Source of the DNA: Escherichia phage ALITA
Strand: one strand, 5' to 3'
Sequence record: PP359570
DNA length: 64,000 nt
The translations under genes were made by a program, and so were the position numbers. Position 1 is the first letter of the stretch. Every line of letters starts with the position of its first letter. The notes below the pieces were generated by a model. The model did no database searches, was not told the DNA's origin, and saw only the letters and a program-made list of their open reading frames with translations. Positions 4,394 through 57,736 of the stretch are shown in pieces.

Positions 4394-5377
4394 ATGGCAA
4401 AGCCACAATACTACCCTGACTGGGCGACACAAACAGTAACCCTCCCAGGAACGGGAAACACAAACAAGATTAGACCAAAAGAAACCATCCGTAATGTTGG
4501 TATGGACTTTGGTCAGATTATGACTTGTGAAGAAATGAACTGGATCTTAAACAATATTGGGTCTTGGATTCGCTATATGCAAGATGAATTCTTCCCAACA
4601 TTGCCTACTACATATCTTCCTATAGTCGGTACTAAAATTACAATGGCAGGTGATGCTACAGGTGAAGTTACATGGAATGGTAATGCTGCTGTAACATTAT
4701 CTATTCAAGTCGTAGATAACAGCCATAATCACTTATCAGCTAACATTACAGACGCAACATCAAACCAAGTTGTAGGGAATGTCCTTGTTAAGCGTGATAA
4801 TGGTGGTGCTATCTATGCAGGCGATATTTATACCTGTGGTACAGGTGCTACAGATCCTGCAACATTATTTTTTAGAAACTACAACGGACAAACAGTAGGT
4901 AATATGTCCTCTGAACCAGGTGCAGGTGGTCAACTCTATATTTATAGAATGAACCCATCAACTGGAGGAACATCTTGTGCAGTCCGTTTATATGATGCAG
5001 GTTATGTTTTAATAGACAACCCTCGTTCTAATTCTGGTCAAGATACTGGTAATGGTAATGCTCTTGTAAGATTAGACTATCTTAACTCCAGACTAAACTC
5101 ATTGCAAAGCACACTGCAAAATAATATTAACAACGTTAATAGTAACTTGCAAGGCCAAATTAATAGCATTAACAATAGAGTTTCTTCTGTTGTGTCTGCT
5201 ATCCGTCTTGGAACACGTATCCAAGCTGGTGTGTCTGAGTCTCGTTTCTATGCTGGTCACGTGATCACAGGTTGGGGTTTTGGTGACAAGAAAGAACTTC
5301 GTGGTGCTTGGTATTGGTCAGCCCCGCTACAATATTATATTAATGGTAGCTGGATAACAGTAACCAACGTTTCGTAA
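4394..5377 (+). CDS. Tail fibre protein with C-terminal coiled-coil/N-rich repeat
   Basis: 327-aa ORF, SD AAGGAG; N/Q/S-rich heptad-like segment LNSRLNSLQSTLQNNINNVNSNLQGQINSINN. Confidence 0.55.
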   Translation: MAKPQYYPDWATQTVTLPGTGNTNKIRPKETIRNVGMDFGQIMTCEEMNWILNNIGSWIRYMQDEFFPTLPTTYLPIVGTKITMAGDATGEVTWNGNAAVTLSIQVVDNSHNHLSANITDATSNQVVGNVLVKRDNGGAIYAGDIYTCGTGATDPATLFFRNYNGQTVGNMSSEPGAGGQLYIYRMNPSTGGTSCAVRLYDAGYVLIDNPRSNSGQDTGNGNALVRLDYLNSRLNSLQSTLQNNINNVNSNLQGQINSINNRVSSVVSAIRLGTRIQAGVSESRFYAGHVITGWGFGDKKELRGAWYWSAPLQYYINGSWITVTNVS

Positions 5378-49691: not shown

Positions 49692-50120
49692 TTATTCTCC
49701 AAATCGAAAATCGTCAATATCATCAAACCATACACAATGGCGAGTCCTTTCTTTTTCTGTTGCAGACATTGTTTCAACAGCTTTAGGACTAAGCACAACA
49801 GGAATGTAACGAACAGGTCGTTCATAATAGTAGCCATACTTTTCTGTATTAGCTGCCTCAAAGACTTTACGGCGTTCTTCAAGATCTTCTATGGTGAATC
49901 CTACCATATAACCATCATGTTTGCTACCCCATCCTTCCTCACTTTCAACAATCGGGATATAAAAGCCGTTACGCGTCCCTGACGCTGGTTCTTCTTGAGC
50001 CTGAAGGCAAGCCTCCCATCCTGCTTTAAAGACGTTATAGAGCGATTTACGCACGTTATGAGTGCCGCTTTCGCTTGCTGGATAGAGTTCATTAAATTTA
50101 TCTTGGATTTGTTGCGTCAT
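49692..50120 (-). CDS. Hypothetical protein
   Basis: 142-aa ORF. Confidence 0.5.
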   Translation of the reverse strand: MTQQIQDKFNELYPASESGTHNVRKSLYNVFKAGWEACLQAQEEPASGTRNGFYIPIVESEEGWGSKHDGYMVGFTIEDLEERRKVFEAANTEKYGYYYERPVRYIPVVLSPKAVETMSATEKERTRHCVWFDDIDDFRFGE

Positions 50121-50263
50121 ACTCGCCCCTTAGTGATTATTTGACCAGCTAAACAAATAGCTTGCAGTACAGTAAAGAAGTAGCCTAATTTTACACTACC
50201 TAATACCCAGAATGCAATGTTTGCAAACAAACAGAAAGCAATATTAAGTCTAAAGAATAACAT
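50117..50263 (-). CDS. Small hydrophobic protein
   Basis: 48 aa; SD AAGGGG; ATGA overlap with downstream gene. Confidence 0.3.
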   Translation of the reverse strand: MLFFRLNIAFCLFANIAFWVLGSVKLGYFFTVLQAICLAGQIITKGRV

Positions 50264-50530
50264 TTAATCCCCTTCGTATTTAGGTAAAGGCATATATGCC
50301 ACAATAGGAGGGTAATCAAAGTGAAAATGATGGTTCACCACAATAATCTTACCAGACATACTTTTATGCACTTCACAATACCCTTTTCCACCATCTTCCA
50401 TTACCACCACATACTCACCTAGTGGGATATCGTATGGATCTTCTACTTTTACCCATTCTGTCATTTTGTAAACTCCTCGTAGTAAGGTAAAGCCTTGATC
50501 AGTTGTTCTGAAGTGCCATTTTGCACCCAC
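50264..50530 (-). CDS. Hypothetical protein
   Basis: 88-aa ORF. Confidence 0.45.
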   Translation of the reverse strand: MGAKWHFRTTDQGFTLLRGVYKMTEWVKVEDPYDIPLGEYVVVMEDGGKGYCEVHKSMSGKIIVVNHHFHFDYPPIVAYMPLPKYEGD

Positions 50531-50596
50531 GTAACACCATTGTCAACAGAAACATACCCTTTTTTGTCAATAAATTTACGCAGACAGCCAGTGAAC

Positions 50597-50776
50597 TTAT
50601 TTTTGTAGATCATTTCTTCTTTCCTTTTTGATTACAGCCCCATCACTCCCTTGCCAAACTTCCGATCTGAATTCCATCTCAAACCACTCACCACCGCAAA
50701 AACGGCTATGTTCAACACGTCTATCTTCCTTCATTGCTTCTTTAGCTTCGATAGAAGTTAGTTCGATGTTTTGCAT
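50597..50776 (-). CDS. Small hypothetical protein, first gene of minus-strand block
   Basis: Start at ATG with SD AGGAGA (MQNIELTS...). Confidence 0.4.
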   Translation of the reverse strand: MQNIELTSIEAKEAMKEDRRVEHSRFCGGEWFEMEFRSEVWQGSDGAVIKKERRNDLQK

Positions 50777-50807
50777 TTGTTTTTCTCCTTTCATTTGGTA
50801 TGCGCTA

Positions 50808-50835
50808 ATCTTAACAAAATAAAAATGTATGTCAA
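50808..50835 (-). promoter_or_regulatory. Sigma70-like promoter for minus-strand block
   Basis: TTGACA-16 nt-TAAGAT on minus strand. Confidence 0.45.
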
Positions 50836-50894
50836 TACTTGATTTGAAATTAGTTTCTGGTACTCTGTGTGTATCGTAACAAAAGAGGTTAGAT

Positions 50895-51185
50895 ATGAAC
50901 ATCACACTAGCAACTAAGAATATTACAGAAACTTTTGATGGTTTTGGCATTATTATTGCTGTTCATGGGCATAACGAAAAATGGTTAGCCTCTTTTGAAG
51001 AGGACAAAGAACGCAATGTACGTTTGAATGCACCAATCAAAGTTTTACACCAGGTAGGTGAGAATAAGAAACAATGGAGATCATACAAAGAGTGGAACAT
51101 TACGAACGAGTTAATACACAAACTTGACAAAGTGATAAACATGTTCGACAATGCACCAAGCAGTGCAAAACGTGTTTTACTATAA
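50895..51185 (+). CDS. Hypothetical early protein
   Basis: 96 aa, SD AAGAGG. Confidence 0.5.
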   Translation: MNITLATKNITETFDGFGIIIAVHGHNEKWLASFEEDKERNVRLNAPIKVLHQVGENKKQWRSYKEWNITNELIHKLDKVINMFDNAPSSAKRVLL

Positions 51186-51196
51186 AGGAGAGTGAT

Positions 51197-51550
51197 ATGA
51201 AAATTGTACACGATGAAATTCAATTTGAAGACAGTGATCTTCTTGATCTGGATGTGACACTAAGTAAACTGATCTACAACGCACTTTCTGCATATCGTGC
51301 AAAAGTGATAGCCACAAACAATGTTAAAATTCCTAGTGGGTTACTTCGTCGGATGTACCCACACGCTAAAGGTGACTATCTACCTTATATGGAAGAACGA
51401 GCAGCAGAACACTGGTTAGAAATTCTTGAAAAAATGGAGTCCTCTTTTAAAGATTCAACTCCACCGGAAGAAGTTAATGAAAAACAACGGCAAGAGCGTT
51501 TAGAAGGTCGTATTTTGTTTGCTAAGTATTTCCATAATTTGTGGAGCTAA
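51197..51550 (+). CDS. Hypothetical protein
   Basis: 117 aa, SD AAGGAG. Confidence 0.5.
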   Translation: MKIVHDEIQFEDSDLLDLDVTLSKLIYNALSAYRAKVIATNNVKIPSGLLRRMYPHAKGDYLPYMEERAAEHWLEILEKMESSFKDSTPPEEVNEKQRQERLEGRILFAKYFHNLWS

Positions 51551-51626
51551 ACATATCTGGTAAAATCACTTATATGTTCTTAGTATACTTGTGTAAAGAA
51601 GTTATCGGTCTAATTAAGGGGAAGAT

Positions 51627-51878
51627 ATGATTCAGTTTCAAAAAGGTCAAAAGATGACAGTTCACAATGCAGAGGAAATGGAATTTGCACTTAAACTTCT
51701 CGAAAATGCTGGGTTTGTGTGGATCAACGGTGGAGAGAAGCCTACAGCTTGGCTTCCACATGAGAAAATAGCCAACCACACCTTTCCTGATAGTATCAAT
51801 TGGCATTCTGATGGTAAGATTTGCCGTGGAAGTTACCCAACAGGTGTTGAGTGGACTATTAAATTAGGAGGGCTTTAA
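51627..51878 (+). CDS. Hypothetical protein
   Basis: 83 aa, SD AAGGGG. Confidence 0.5.
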   Translation: MIQFQKGQKMTVHNAEEMEFALKLLENAGFVWINGGEKPTAWLPHEKIANHTFPDSINWHSDGKICRGSYPTGVEWTIKLGGL

Positions 51879-51879
51879 T

Positions 51880-52218
51880 ATGTTTAGTAAAGAAATGAGA
51901 GAAGTAATTGCCACTTTGGTAGTTGATCATGGTGTTGAAGTTGAGCGTCACGTTTGGAACGATGAACCTCCTTTCTTCGATTTGGCATCACGAGCTAAAA
52001 GTCATATGCACCTGCTGGAAGACGGTAATGAGTTTGTTCTCCGTATGCGTTATGATCGAGAGTTTCGAATTCCGCTTGACACTGAACCAGATGGTGTAGT
52101 AATGTGGTTGGCAGAACATTTCGCATACGATGCACTACATGGAAGAAGTTTTGGTAATGAGCGTTGGGATGCCATTTGTCGTAAGCATAATATTGAACCA
52201 GAGTACGGGAGTATGTAA
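51880..52218 (+). CDS. Hypothetical protein
   Basis: 112 aa, SD AGGAGG. Confidence 0.5.
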   Translation: MFSKEMREVIATLVVDHGVEVERHVWNDEPPFFDLASRAKSHMHLLEDGNEFVLRMRYDREFRIPLDTEPDGVVMWLAEHFAYDALHGRSFGNERWDAICRKHNIEPEYGSM

Positions 52219-53126: not shown

Positions 53127-54254
53127 ATGAAATACACGATTTATGGTGATATTGTAAGTGTAAATAAAGATATGGGCGTGGAATCTAACTATCTTCCACC
53201 TGGATTCTATACTGTTAGTCGTGATCCCCTTGGCAATTATTTTTTAAGCCGTGGTAATCTAACAGGTGTACCGGATGTTTTGTATGGTGAAACAGAAAAA
53301 CGAGCAAATCACGTTATCCGTACATTCCATCGCCGGAGTGCACAAGGTAAAAACACAGGCTTGCTTCTGACAGGAACTAAGGGCAGTGGTAAAACTATGT
53401 TAGCCAAACTCATTAGTCGTGACCTTGTAGAAGAAGGTATTCCAACTATTATGGTTACTCAAGCCTACAGCGATGCTAATTTCATTGAACTTATTAGCAA
53501 GATCACCGACAAAGCAGTGATTATTTTTGACGAGTTTGATAAAGTATATGAGAAGAAACAAGATCAAGAAGCACTTCTCACTTTGTTAGATGGTACTGGG
53601 AGTGGTAATAAACTGTTTATTCTAACTAAAAACAGTGGTTTTATCTCTGAATTCTTTTTAAATCGTCCTAGTCGTGTGTTTTATAATTTTAATTATGATA
53701 AAATCTCACTAGAAACTATGATTGACTATTTAGATAAAAACTTGGATAACAAAGCACACTTTGATAATTTCCAAAGGCTTTGGGATGTAAGTTTAGAGTT
53801 GTCCTTTGATGTGATCCAAGGTATAGTAGAAGAACTTAATTTCTACCCTGATTTATCCTTTAAAGAATGCATCTCTATGATGGGCGTTTCTTTGGGTGGT
53901 GGTAATAAATGGGATATCAGCAGCGTTGTTATTAATGGAAAACTTCAGAAAGTTAGCTGGGTATCTAGTTGGCATAACTTCACACCTGCAATCTTCTTAG
54001 GTGGCTCGTGCACACTAGACGTGTACTTGTCATCTCCAAGTGATGCAGACTCTAAAGAAGCCCTTGCTAATAGCTCTTACGTGGTTTTTGATGATGAAGG
54101 CGATGCTCGAATTCCATTGAATGCGACAAAAATGAAAGCAGATCTTATTACAGGCGGTAAAATCGTTGTGTTTAGTGATGATCCAGAAGATTCTTTCCGT
54201 ATTGTTCTGGAACCAACTATCACCAATGGTGCAACTTTGGCAAGCGTGTTTTAA
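53127..54254 (+). CDS. P-loop AAA-type ATPase (paralog of 36972-38132)
   Basis: 375 aa; Walker A LLTGTKGSGKT, Walker B IIFDEFDK; co-linear similarity to the minus-strand paralog. Confidence 0.75.
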   Translation: MKYTIYGDIVSVNKDMGVESNYLPPGFYTVSRDPLGNYFLSRGNLTGVPDVLYGETEKRANHVIRTFHRRSAQGKNTGLLLTGTKGSGKTMLAKLISRDLVEEGIPTIMVTQAYSDANFIELISKITDKAVIIFDEFDKVYEKKQDQEALLTLLDGTGSGNKLFILTKNSGFISEFFLNRPSRVFYNFNYDKISLETMIDYLDKNLDNKAHFDNFQRLWDVSLELSFDVIQGIVEELNFYPDLSFKECISMMGVSLGGGNKWDISSVVINGKLQKVSWVSSWHNFTPAIFLGGSCTLDVYLSSPSDADSKEALANSSYVVFDDEGDARIPLNATKMKADLITGGKIVVFSDDPEDSFRIVLEPTITNGATLASVF

Positions 54255-54268
54255 GTAAGCCAGCAAAT

Positions 54269-54295
54269 AAAAACCCGCTTCGGCGGGTTTTCTTG
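54269..54295 (+). terminator. Intrinsic terminator
   Basis: AAAAACCCGC-TTCG-GCGGGTTTTCTTG. Confidence 0.75.
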
Positions 54296-54328
54296 TATTG
54301 ATACCAGATTTAATAAGAGGAGTAATAG

Positions 54329-55735
54329 ATGCCAGCACCAAAATCATGGGAACAATATAAAGAAGAATTAACACCCCTTGCTAAAAATCACAACATTCAG
54401 ATTCTGGGTTATATTGGTGAATGGAAAGGGAGCAAGACTAAACTTAAGCTATCTTGCTCTGATCATGGGGAGTGGGAAAGTACCATAATCAATAGCTTTA
54501 AAACTAAAGGCGGTAAATGTTGCCCCGATTGCAATGGTCGTAGAAAAGTAACAGAAGAAAAGGAATGTATTTCCCTTGTTGATGTTGCTAAAGAAAGAGG
54601 GTTTACTTTTATAGGTCTTGCCGAAGAGTGGCGAGGTGTGCTAACAAAAATCCGCATAGTTTGCCCTAAACATGGAGAGTGGAACACCACGACCATTAGT
54701 GGTTTTAGGAAGGGACGTGGTTGTCCGGCATGTGCAAGTAATAAGCCGTTAACATGGGAAACAGAATTACCGATCTTGGAAGAGATAGCACAGAAGAAGG
54801 GGTATCAGGTGTTAGGGTACGTGGGAGAATGGAAAGGGATTGATACAAAACTTGATTTGTTGTGTCACTGTGGTAACAGATGGGATACTACAAGTATTAA
54901 CAGTTTTAAACATGATCATGGTTGTCCTTTATGTGGGTATGAGAATACAAGGAAGGCACAAACAATACCCGACGATCAACATATTGCAGATTTCTTTTCT
55001 ACAGGGAAATTTAAGGAAGGCACTATCTTTACCAATACAGGGAAACGTAGTTGTAGTAAAAACAAGGACATTATCTGGATGATCGAATGTCCTGTTTGCT
55101 CTCATGATGAGTATGTGCAAGCAGGTGTATGTGATGGTAAGTTTTATATGACACGTAGCGATCTTAAGGCTGGACACTTGCCCTGCCGCTGTGCAACTAA
55201 CTCTCATTATACAGAAAATCAGATTACCTACAGGGTAAAAAAGGAAGTAGAAGGGAGAGGGTATGTCTGGGTAGGTTGGATCGGTAAACCGTCTATAAGA
55301 CTGGGTAATTTTAAATATCTTTGTCTTGTTCATGGGGAACAAATTGGTAGTGCTTATCGCTTACTATATCAGGATAATGGTTGTCCACAATGTGCAGGTC
55401 ATAGTCAGCAGCAATTGTATGTTAATGTTGTTAAAGATAATGGTATTATAGTTGCTCTTAAGTTTGGTATATCTAAAGATAGTGCTAGGAGATTAAACAT
55501 TCAAAATAGGCGTAATATGTTTTTTATGGAGCGTATTTGTTTATATGATTTTAGTACAGTGAAGCAGTGTAAGGCTGCTGAAAGAGCTATAAAGAAAAAA
55601 TTAAAAACTGGTATCTTAACAGCAAGAGAGTTGAAAGATGGTTATACAGAAACAGTAAGTGTTTCTGATTTGGAAAATCTTCAAAAAATTATTACACAAT
55701 ATGGTGGCAAATTAGTATACAGTAAGGAGGTGTAA
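54329..55735 (+). CDS. Zinc-ribbon repeat protein with C-terminal T5orf172/GIY-YIG-like domain
   Basis: 468 aa; four or more repeats of C..HGEW...F...GCP.C; C-terminal LYVNVVKDNGIIVALKFGIS...RRL block. Confidence 0.55.
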   Translation: MPAPKSWEQYKEELTPLAKNHNIQILGYIGEWKGSKTKLKLSCSDHGEWESTIINSFKTKGGKCCPDCNGRRKVTEEKECISLVDVAKERGFTFIGLAEEWRGVLTKIRIVCPKHGEWNTTTISGFRKGRGCPACASNKPLTWETELPILEEIAQKKGYQVLGYVGEWKGIDTKLDLLCHCGNRWDTTSINSFKHDHGCPLCGYENTRKAQTIPDDQHIADFFSTGKFKEGTIFTNTGKRSCSKNKDIIWMIECPVCSHDEYVQAGVCDGKFYMTRSDLKAGHLPCRCATNSHYTENQITYRVKKEVEGRGYVWVGWIGKPSIRLGNFKYLCLVHGEQIGSAYRLLYQDNGCPQCAGHSQQQLYVNVVKDNGIIVALKFGISKDSARRLNIQNRRNMFFMERICLYDFSTVKQCKAAERAIKKKLKTGILTARELKDGYTETVSVSDLENLQKIITQYGGKLVYSKEV

Positions 55736-56287
55736 ATGCGGATTACTGATAAGTATGTGTTCTTCTTCTCGGCAAAAGATGAATTTAGCAACTGGTATCT
55801 ATCATCTTTTATTGAACCTTTAGCTCCCAAGTATAATAATTCTATTACAAGTTCTGTTGAATTTACTTGTGTGGAACAATATATGATGTGGAGAAAAGCA
55901 TGTTTGTTTTATGATTACAGTATTGCATCTTCTATTTTAACCGGAGATCTAAGATATACAGGAGAAAAAGAACAAGCATATTATAAACGACTAGGCAGAT
56001 TAGTTAAAGATTATGATGAAGATACCTGGGCTTCTTTACGGGAGAAGATTGTCAAGCGTGGTTTGTATCTTAAATACACACAAAATGAAGATCTCAAAAA
56101 TAAACTTATCGCTTACGCAGATAAGGAGTTCGTAGAGGCAAGCCCCTATGATTCTATTTATGGTATCAAAATGGGGATGTGGGATCGGGACGTGGAAAAT
56201 AAGGATTGTTGGAAAGGGCAAAATCTTTTAGGAAAATGGCATACAGACCTTGCTGTTTATCTAAAATCACAATCTGATATTTCCTGA
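55736..56287 (+). CDS. NADAR (YbiA/DUF1768)-family protein
   Basis: 183 aa; strong SD AAGGAGG; blocks FFFSAKDEFSNW, VEQYMMWRKACLF, LGRLV, FVEASPYDSIYGIKMG alignable to E. coli YbiA. Confidence 0.75.
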   Translation: MRITDKYVFFFSAKDEFSNWYLSSFIEPLAPKYNNSITSSVEFTCVEQYMMWRKACLFYDYSIASSILTGDLRYTGEKEQAYYKRLGRLVKDYDEDTWASLREKIVKRGLYLKYTQNEDLKNKLIAYADKEFVEASPYDSIYGIKMGMWDRDVENKDCWKGQNLLGKWHTDLAVYLKSQSDIS

Positions 56288-56506
56288 TATTTTGAAAATT
56301 TTTATTTTTATAAAAAGGGGTGTGGGTTTCATGTACGGAAATCCACCCTCTGAATAATATATCCAGAGTAAGTAGTATTCTGTACTCTGTTAATAAAGTA
56401 TTTAATTTGTTTGTTGGATTATGGTGGCTGATCTTTAAAAGGCATACTATCTCTTAACTACTACTTATAACAAAACAGTAAAATCCTTTTTATAAAAGTA
56501 CAAAAT

Positions 56507-56703
56507 TATTTAAAGTTTTTACAGATTTTCGGGTACAAATTTTGAAAATGAAAAGTTCAAGTTTGGTCAAAATTATTTAAAGTTTTTGTACGTATTTCTG
56601 TCCAGATTTTGAAAATGAAAACTTCAATTTTTTAAAAATTCCCCAGTTTATTTAAAGTTTTTTTGCCTTTTTCCGTAGAAAAATCAAAAATGAAAAGTTC
56701 AAT
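56507..56703. repeat. Three tandem direct repeats (~55-60 bp) in noncoding region
   Basis: Each unit starts TTATTTAAAGTTTTT and ends GAAAATGAAAAGTTCAA with a variable centre. Confidence 0.8.
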
Positions 56704-56724
56704 TTCGTGTTTTTATAGGTGTGT

Positions 56725-56841
56725 TAATGAGAATCATTTTCGTTTGTAAATGAGAATCATTATCATTTAACTATGTAAGTGATAATCATTCTCAGTAAGA
56801 GAATGAGAATCATTAGCAAATGAGAATTTTTCTCATTTACA
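56725..56841. promoter_or_regulatory. Cluster of five palindromic sites with Fur-box-like core (candidate repressor sites or origin iterons)
   Basis: AATGAGAATCATT variants; AATGAGAATCATTATCATT and GTGATAATCATTCTCAG; last copy is perfect inverted repeat AAATGAGAA-TTT-TTCTCATTT. Confidence 0.6.
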
Positions 56842-57098
56842 GAATAACGCGCAGGGGCGGTGTTTGTCTCGCGCTCCCGTGTCCCCTCGCCATACAATAA
56901 GAATAGCATAACCAATAACAAAAGCAAGCGATTATTTTTATCTTTACATTTCTTTACAAATTTATTTTAGACGAGCTACCGGCGATCAACCTTCCAACCA
57001 GTGCCCCCTGGTATGTTAGCCCCGCCTTTACGCCGTGGGGTGGCGTTTCCTCTTCTGTATGTAAAACAGTATAAGCCCGATCCCTGGGCTTGTCAAGA

Positions 57099-57365
57099 TT
57101 ATTTTTTGTTTTCTTGCCAGGATAGGACACCTAACCAAAAATACATGTCGCCCCGCGCCCCTGGTGGGATCTTGCTTTCCCCGCCGCCACTGCAAGCCCA
57201 TAAATAACCATCAGCGAACGGATCAAAGTGATCTATCTCTTCCACCTTATGATCGCCCAGGTTGAGAACGGTTTCAACCTTTAAGCCCGTTGCGCTTGCT
57301 ACCTGGTGCACCGTGCCGCCTTGCCAGCCCAGTGAGTGCATGAGATGTAAAGAAGTATTTGTCAT
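57099..57365 (-). CDS. Hypothetical protein, divergent from early array, GC-rich codon usage
   Basis: 88-aa ORF; hairpin AGCCCAGGGATCGGGCT downstream. Confidence 0.4.
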   Translation of the reverse strand: MTNTSLHLMHSLGWQGGTVHQVASATGLKVETVLNLGDHKVEEIDHFDPFADGYLWACSGGGESKIPPGARGDMYFWLGVLSWQENKK

Positions 57366-57736
57366 GGTATCGCCCTTTCTTTGTTGTGCGCCCTGGTTGG
57401 CGCGGTAGAAAGATGATAGCCGTTTCCTTCATATATAGCAAGCAAAAAAGAAATGAAAAAAAGATTAAAAAATGGTTGACGTTCCTCACCTGGTAGCGTA
57501 GTATTCATCTTGTCGAGGGGGGCAAGACACAACGACAATAAACAATAGGCGGGTGCAATGCAAGACGGGCAAAGGTGAGGATCTCCACAATCCACCGTCA
57601 CAATAACATTACTTATAAAAGGTTGATAACGATGATCAAGAAAGAAAATAGCTTGACGGTTGGAACGATTAACGCTATCATTCTTGCCGTTCCATTTTGG
57701 ATTGTAGTTGCGGTTATTATTTTCTAAAAAAATATT

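Follow-up and report, generated by a model that had tools for sequence, protein, structure and literature searches.

What is encoded by the open reading frame (ORF) that lies between an AAA ATPase gene and a NADAR gene in Escherichia phage ALITA (sequence record PP359570), and what does its product do? The 64,000-nucleotide (nt) stretch that we analysed, called the window throughout, belongs to a phi92-like E. coli myovirus (Stephanstirmvirinae, Justusliebigvirus), with phage PaulScherrer as its best match (95% over 4 kb). The ORF, called at 54329..55735 on the + strand, is complete, with an ATG start, 468 amino acids (aa) and a stop codon, and its product consists of five CapR-type zinc-finger repeats followed by a T5orf172 nuclease domain. 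We conclude that it is probably a homing endonuclease gene (HEG), free-standing and from the T5orf172 branch of the GIY-YIG superfamily. PHROG 681, 'endonuclease', spans the whole protein (E=2e-92), copies of the gene in relatives are already labelled 'endonuclease' in RefSeq, and the UniRef label is 'CapR homology domain-containing protein'. Homologues of the product are 263-562 aa long.

The nuclease domain, of the GIY-YIG superfamily, occupies aa 360-468 (55406..55732, +). The first-pass annotation, made from the sequence alone, had likened the C-terminal ~100 residues to the T5orf172 subfamily of GIY-YIG-like domains, and this was borne out, weakly at the level of sequence and more firmly by homology and fold. 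The isolated domain scores 20.3 bits on the T5orf172 model (PF10544, cut-off 20), covering profile positions 9-69 of 101 only. When the C-terminal domains of 32 diverse members of the family were scanned, 20 matched T5orf172 (best E=1.5e-5) and 18 matched the related MUG113. With that of Gp130/tcgB of the Vibrio phage ICP1 the domain shares 42% identity, ungapped over 110 aa (E=2e-24); Gp130 itself reaches only 21.2 bits on PF10544 even though it is an accepted member. Gp130, which sits beside the split terL (terminase) gene, carries the annotation of putative homing endonuclease, and Netter et al. 2021 (PMC8096241) listed it among the putative HEGs with CapR domains.

The catalytic residues are present and conserved. 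Eight residues are invariant in the alignment of the 32 domains, Y364, K378, G380, R388, E418, G438, E441 and T442, and the same eight are still invariant in an alignment of 68 full-length sequences that includes homologues down to about 27% identity. On the + strand, Y364 is encoded at 55418-55420, K378/G380 at 55460-55468, R388 at 55490-55492, E418 at 55580-55582 and E441 at 55649-55651. When the ICP1 nuclease Odn is aligned to the family profile, its E180 falls on E418, its K-x-G on K378/G380 and its Arg motif on R388. The substitution E180A abolishes DNA cleavage by Odn both in vitro and in vivo (PMC8263062). A loss of the GIY-YIG catalytic residues, which would have spoken against the first-pass annotation, was looked for and not seen: the Arg and the Glu are present in all 68 homologues. 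In I-TevI the catalytic Arg/Glu pair is R27/E75, the equivalence of E75 being taken from PMC8263062. Odn is the only protein for which metal-dependent DNA cleavage by a T5orf172 domain has been demonstrated (PMC8263062), and by analogy with it the C-terminal domain of the ALITA protein would be expected to cleave DNA.

The AF2 model of the C-terminal domain is confident (predicted local distance difference test, pLDDT, 96.1) and displays the GIY-YIG fold, a three-stranded sheet flanked by helices in the order b-b-a-b-a-a. Sequence searches against solved structures gave nothing meaningful for the full protein, and for the C-terminal profile a spurious match to a designed repeat protein. Comparing the C-terminal alignment by hhalign with the I-TevI catalytic domain left the core unaligned (E=0.16). 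Since these comparisons were uninformative, the link to the classical GIY-YIG enzymes rests on the fold and on the bridge through T5orf172.

The N-terminal 359 residues form five tandem modules, four of them canonical, of 67-69 aa, and one an 86-aa variant, R4, between R3 and R5. The first-pass annotation had described at least four repeats of C..HGEW...F...GCP.C in the N-terminal ~350 residues; the array is real, with five repeats, and the motif is looser than written, since C..HGEW occurs literally only in R1 and R2, R5 having C..HGEQ, R3 CHCGNRW and R4 CPVC...CRC. The Pfam CapR homology domain (PF21817, DUF723-type zinc fingers; gathering cut-off 24.2 bits) matches the whole protein over five stretches (E=7e-47, 157.9 bits). 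Scored alone, R1 (aa 4-72, 54338..54544) reaches 42.9 bits on this model, R2 (aa 73-139, 54545..54745) 37.4 bits, R3 (aa 140-206, 54746..54946) 52.9 bits and the long variant R4 (aa 207-292, 54947..55204) 50.8 bits, all on the + strand. R5 (aa 293-359, 55205..55405, +), the repeat that always adjoins the nuclease domain, scores 18.1 bits alone, below the cut-off, and is clearly homologous to R1-R3 (E about 1e-24) by a repeat hidden Markov model (HMM) built in this analysis, which gives E values of 1e-24 to 1e-28 for each canonical repeat.

Each of the five repeats has four putative zinc ligands, arranged as pairs (CxxC, and CxC or CxxH) about 16-28 residues apart: C43/H46/C65/C68 in R1, C112/H115/C132/C135 in R2, C179/C181/C199/C202 in R3, C254/C257/C286/C288 in R4 and C332/H335/C352/C355 in R5. 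The ligand columns are invariant or nearly so across the 68 homologues, those of R4 being nearly invariant, and the CxxC...CxC spacing of R4 is that of CapR itself. In the full-length structure model (pLDDT 86.4; predicted template modelling score, pTM, 0.42) each module has a confident fold of helix, three strands and short helix, and the modules have no fixed mutual arrangement, so that the modelled picture is one of beads on a string. The founder of the repeat family, CapR, binds DNA through its Cys pairs, as judged from electrophoretic mobility shift assays and Cys-to-Ser mutants (PMC8096241), and zinc-dependent, sequence-specific DNA binding by a CapR-type domain has been shown only for the CapR of PLE, a Vibrio cholerae satellite (PMC8096241). 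By analogy with CapR (PMC8096241), the repeats of the ALITA protein may bind DNA.

These findings bear on whether the protein is a sequence-specific nuclease or a DNA-binding regulator, both of which the first-pass annotation had offered. As a regulator that does not cleave, it would use the zinc-finger array as a repressor or activator and its C-terminal domain would be catalytically silent. Such a role would find precedent in CapR, which is purely a promoter-binding repressor (PMC8096241), and in I-TevI, which moonlights as an autorepressor (discussed in PMC10448857), and some 0.8 kb downstream there is a non-coding, AT-rich region full of repeats. Conservation of this region is 95-97%, however, whereas the binding array varies widely, with no covariation between the two. 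The invariance of the catalytic Arg and Glu and of the other motif residues in 68 homologues, down to about 27% identity, is not expected of a dead domain and makes a purely regulatory role improbable. Of the two functions first offered, the nuclease is favoured over the pure regulator because the catalytic motifs are conserved.

Evidence that the gene behaves as a mobile unit comes from related phages, among which a check for insertion-site polymorphism was positive. In most Phapecoctavirus genomes the HEG lies directly 3' of the ATPase gene, as in ESCO25 (486 aa) and iGC_PHA_EC001 (402 aa). At the corresponding loci of phiWec190 and Citrobacter phage Tr1 no HEG allele was found by tblastn, and the ATPase gene is followed directly by the next gene. 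A query placed across the empty junction of phiWec190 gave a contiguous match in phiWec188, phiWec190 and EP57 and was likewise unbroken in the Klebsiella phages KP13-26, phi1_175008 and KP2025, while about 70 other records were split at the junction; phiWec188, like phiWec190, has the empty site, and the unbroken matches suggest an empty site in EP57 and the three Klebsiella phages as well. Comparison of phiWec181, which is occupied, with phiWec190 revealed a 1007-nt insertion in place of 9 nt, between flanks that share 98.0% identity over 2375 nt on one side and 95.6% over 1675 nt on the other. The insertion is placed exactly between the ATPase terminator hairpin GATGCCCCGCAAGGGGCATTT, which is kept in both phages, and the ribosome-binding site (RBS) of the next gene, GGAGGAAA; the inserted ORF reads through this RBS and the ATG that follows it. 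The insertion is thus intergenic and spares the host genes, with the RBS of the next gene retained within the 3' end of the HEG.

Six synonymous substitutions distinguish the last six ATPase codons of the two phages, stop included, 26-43 nt upstream of the insertion point and against a background divergence of 2% (4616-4640 of phiWec190, L010; 2944-2968 of phiWec181, L012). Three of the six are common to other occupied genomes. The cluster could be a co-conversion tract or the mark of target-site immunity, either of which is expected to leave such a pattern, and the 3' end of the Phapecoctavirus ATPase gene is a candidate homing or co-conversion region. A clean presence/absence polymorphism combined with clustered silent changes in the flank is the classic signature of a HEG.

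The repeat array evolves much faster than the sequence on either side of it. Compared in 100-nt windows with PaulScherrer and alia, the flanks show 97-100% identity, which falls to 63-92% over 54378-55577 and recovers within the nuclease domain. By the Nei-Gojobori method the ATPase gene has a nonsynonymous rate (dN) of about 0 and a synonymous rate (dS) of 0.07-0.09, the NADAR gene has a dN/dS ratio (omega) of 0.04-0.08, and the HEG has an omega of 0.32-0.36, below 1 in every module. In R4-R5 dS reaches 0.46-0.93, which points to replacement by a divergent allele and not to drift in situ. The domain identities, the fold, the conservation of the catalytic residues, the insertion/empty-site polymorphism and this localised hypervariability are established by the present analysis.

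All alleles share one plan, in which one to four A-type repeats are followed by the long CxxC..CxC repeat, the terminal repeat and the nuclease. The number of A-type repeats is three in the window, two in phi92 gp222 and one each in EmilieFrey and JLBYU50, and alleles differ by whole in-frame repeats in steps of 67-69 aa. Every allele examined has an intact ORF, over a range of 325-486 aa. Alleles whose nuclease domain is 91-96% identical to that of the window have individual binding modules that are only 28-91% identical and that occur in mosaic combinations. Roughly 100 homologues yielded 329 repeats, or 253 once redundancy was removed at 80% identity, among which only the ligands, a few glycines and an inter-repeat 'T/S-W-E-Q' linker are conserved; per-column entropy over the 253 repeats revealed no obvious small set of specificity positions, the variability extending across most of the non-ligand columns.

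An array of chance or compositional repeats, or a pseudogene decaying after fixation, would be hard to reconcile with these data. The omega of the HEG does exceed that of the flanking genes, and the T5orf172 score is below threshold in the full-length protein. Against this stand the intact ORF in all alleles examined, with lengths differing by in-frame whole repeats, a strong RBS, omega below 1 in every module, confident models (pLDDT 96 and 86) and the Pfam CapR match (E=7e-47), which effectively refute a spurious or decaying ORF and leave it a negligible chance.

As a HEG, the gene would act as follows. The five tandem CapR-type modules, strung like beads, would read an extended DNA site, and the C-terminal T5orf172 domain would cut nearby DNA using Arg388 and Glu418, with Tyr364, Lys378 and Glu441 also conserved. 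In a mixed infection the cut would be repaired from the genome that carries the HEG, so that the gene and adjacent markers would be copied into a genome that lacks the HEG or has another allele. The array is continually remodelled, as repeats are gained or lost and modules replaced, and this would retarget the enzyme. The homing process itself, and with it binding, cleavage and a target near the 3' end of the ATPase gene, we infer.

It may also be that the array is a modular, re-assortable recognition system in which each ~67-aa repeat reads a few base pairs, and that allelic nucleases cut one another's genomes in co-infection, a proposal that we regard as doubtful. Under it the length of the target would scale with the number of repeats (three to six), and whole-module swaps would change the specificity. 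If true, it would amount to allelic exclusion between phages at one fixed locus, and the scaffold would perhaps be engineerable in the manner of zinc-finger or TALE arrays.

Several observations weigh against a homing endonuclease. The T5orf172 match is marginal at the level of sequence: for the full-length protein it reaches 17.5 bits, short of the cut-off of 20, and no precomputed PF10544 match is present among close homologues. The ATPase is found at at least 99% aa identity in 55 phage records and the R5-plus-nuclease segment at 60-90% identity in 55 records. The two counts, which agree as totals and not record by record, indicate that the HEG is apparently fixed in all of the about 55 sequenced genomes of Justusliebigvirus, the window's own genus, and by the same counts no empty site was found in the genus. 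Apparent fixation would leave no empty sites for homing within the genus and fits a domesticated gene equally well. The empty sites elsewhere could in principle be precise deletions and not the ancestral state, and the embedded downstream RBS also fits integration into an operon. The cluster of silent changes comes from a single phage pair, and we therefore take it only as a pointer to the location of the homing site.

Because the gene is apparently fixed, has the downstream RBS embedded in it and is under purifying selection in its nuclease domain, the main rival is a domesticated nuclease, to which we give a small but real chance. Such an enzyme, derived from a HEG, would be kept for the benefit of the phage and might cut satellites, competing phages or host DNA, its array tracking the targets. 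The gene is present in all of the about 55 Justusliebigvirus genomes, by record counts, and in most Phapecoctavirus genomes; purifying selection (omega 0.34-0.39) acts on its nuclease motifs, which are invariant; its binding modules are swapped wholesale among nearly identical phages; and the embedded RBS couples it to the downstream gene. Phages of the same group, Inny, Muut and Mt1B1_P17, have 'odn-like' genes of RepA_N-T5orf172 type for which E. coli satellite targets have been proposed (PMC10448857). Unlike Odn and RepA, or the ICP1 HEGs and CapR, where phage and satellite share sequence, the ALITA gene has no nucleotide match by blastn in 5,426 complete E. coli genomes, which leaves a satellite or prophage counterpart sharing its sequence unsupported. 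The gene likewise has no match to a PADLOC defence system, and the presence/absence polymorphism with clustered silent flank changes is what is seen with HEGs.

The architecture and the class to which we assign the gene are already known. Barth et al. 2023 described T5orf172 HEGs with one to several CapR/DUF723-type zinc-finger domains, as well as in-frame deletion and duplication of repeats and domain shuffling in the HEGs of ICP1 (PMC10448857). The ICP1 HEGs Gp130/tcgB, Gp174, Gp165, Gp121 and Gp53 (PMC8096241, PMC10448857) have the same order of N-terminal CapR-type repeats and C-terminal T5orf172 domain, are free-standing, adjoin conserved genes and gain or lose repeats of about 70 aa in frame, a 228-bp deletion in gp174 being comparable to the 67-69 aa steps in the coliphages. 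They differ in belonging to a Vibrio phage and not to Stephanstirmvirinae coliphages; the coliphage array is longer (five repeats, up to six in homologues) with a fixed order of modules, and the coliphage gene is apparently fixed in one genus and has a T5orf172 signal at or below the Pfam threshold. What the present analysis adds is the five-unit array, the fixed module order, the sub-threshold T5orf172 signature and a clean natural pair of HEG+ and HEG- coliphages. A literature search found no paper on this particular gene or on its empty-site polymorphism.

ICP1 Odn (Gp88; PMC8263062) has the same class of nuclease domain, with aligned E180, K-x-G and Arg motifs, and this T5orf172 domain cleaves at sites set by the DNA-binding domain fused to it (PMC8263062). 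In Odn, however, the binding domain is a RepA_N domain acquired from the satellite target and the anti-satellite role is proven, whereas the coliphage HEG has a zinc-finger array for which E. coli genomes show no detectable counterpart. PLE CapR, the repressor of the capsid operon (PMC8096241), shares with R4 the CxxC...CxC motif that CapR needs for DNA binding, and differs in being a 15.5-kDa, single-domain repressor with no nuclease domain. I-TevI and the Seg proteins of T4 resemble the coliphage protein in having a GIY-YIG-fold catalytic domain tethered, beads-on-string, to separate DNA-binding modules, and in being free-standing or intergenic; co-conversion of flanking markers is a feature of those systems. 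In I-TevI the nuclease is N-terminal, so that the order is reversed, and DNA is bound by a helix-turn-helix and a minor-groove helix instead of a zinc-finger array, while the coliphage domain has Lys for the second Tyr of YIG (KFG). The eukaryotic structure-specific repair nucleases SLX1 and HIGLE, with a RING/PHD partner domain, are alike in fold only (14-17% identity).

The assignment supplies a defensible function for a gene called 'hypothetical protein' in many records of phi92/phAPEC8-like phages. The position of the T5orf172 subfamily at or below the Pfam threshold means that censuses of HEGs based on Pfam, such as a screen at E<=0.001, could miss this family. As both infect E. coli, phiWec181 and phiWec190 are a natural pair for direct tests of homing, of the target site and of the recognition rules of CapR repeats, and an easier one than the Vibrio/ICP1 system in which the class was defined. 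How the specificity of HEGs evolves is usefully illustrated by near-identical genomes in which the nuclease domain stays frozen and the binding array is shuffled.

The HEG occupies the slot between the terminator of the AAA ATPase gene (53127..54254, +; PHROG 2376) and the RBS of the next gene. An intrinsic-terminator-like hairpin, AAAACCCGCTTCGGCGGGTTTT, with a T-rich tail lies 3' of the ATPase gene (54270..54299, hairpin 54270-54291, +) and is the upstream boundary of the intergenic slot that houses the HEG; in Phapecoctavirus relatives an analogous hairpin is present at both empty and occupied sites. A strong Shine-Dalgarno sequence, AAGAGGAG, precedes the ATG of the HEG by 6 nt (54315..54322, +), and a promoter scan of the interval from the terminator to the start codon gave no convincing sigma-70 promoter, counts being at the level of shuffled sequence. 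At the 3' end of the HEG (55723..55738, +) the RBS of the downstream NADAR gene, TAAGGAGGTG, is inside the last codons, and the stop codon TAA (55733-55735) directly adjoins the NADAR ATG at 55736; the Phapecoctavirus alleles likewise read through the RBS and ATG of the next gene. A scan of the 64-kb window with the repeat HMM and a nuclease-domain HMM found no paralogue of the HEG.

The AAA ATPase is 99.1-100% identical in aa sequence in about 55 genomes, each of which has a second tblastn place for the ATPase, and distant homologues are encoded by jumbo phages of Erwinia and Yersinia and by phages of Aeromonas and Salmonella. The NADAR (YbiA-like) gene on the other flank (55736..56287, +; Pfam E=3e-36) encodes a product that also matches the PADLOC candidate PDC-M42C (E=2e-34) and, weakly, the NCBIfam NADAR anti-phage protein DS32_2. 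The phage NADAR protein might serve in counter-defence, for example by reversing ADP-ribosylation of DNA or RNA.

An AT-rich non-coding stretch (GC 0.24-0.26) lies 3' of the NADAR gene at 56487-56837, about 0.8 kb downstream of the HEG. It contains three direct repeats of ~70 nt (56487-56705) and then a cluster of the near-palindrome AATGAGAATCATT (56726-56837). With up to 2 mismatches and on both strands, AATGAGAATCATT has 12 matches in the window, eight of them in the cluster, against 4.2 +/- 2.3 in shuffled sequences. The element resembles an array of iterons or operators, or a set of Fur boxes. As an operator or target of the HEG the array was rejected because its conservation (95-97% over the region) does not covary with the variable binding array.

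Further downstream, a GC-rich island (0.50-0.54, against about 0.38 for the genome) at 57000-57400 holds an 88-aa ORF (57099..57365, minus strand), a homologue of phi92 gp224 with no Pfam match. The 57000-57400 segment is conserved across Justusliebigvirus and Phapecoctavirus, and parts of it match Klebsiella phage KpS11 and the 54-kb E. coli phage 19-1-2, a distribution suggestive of a module that moves horizontally. On the scale of the whole window, GC skew is negative over about 14-50 kb and positive after about 52 kb, with the switch of sign at about 50000-52000, where the long ORFs also pass from the minus to the plus strand. The two switches together place the HEG close to where a rightward transcription unit of small genes begins.

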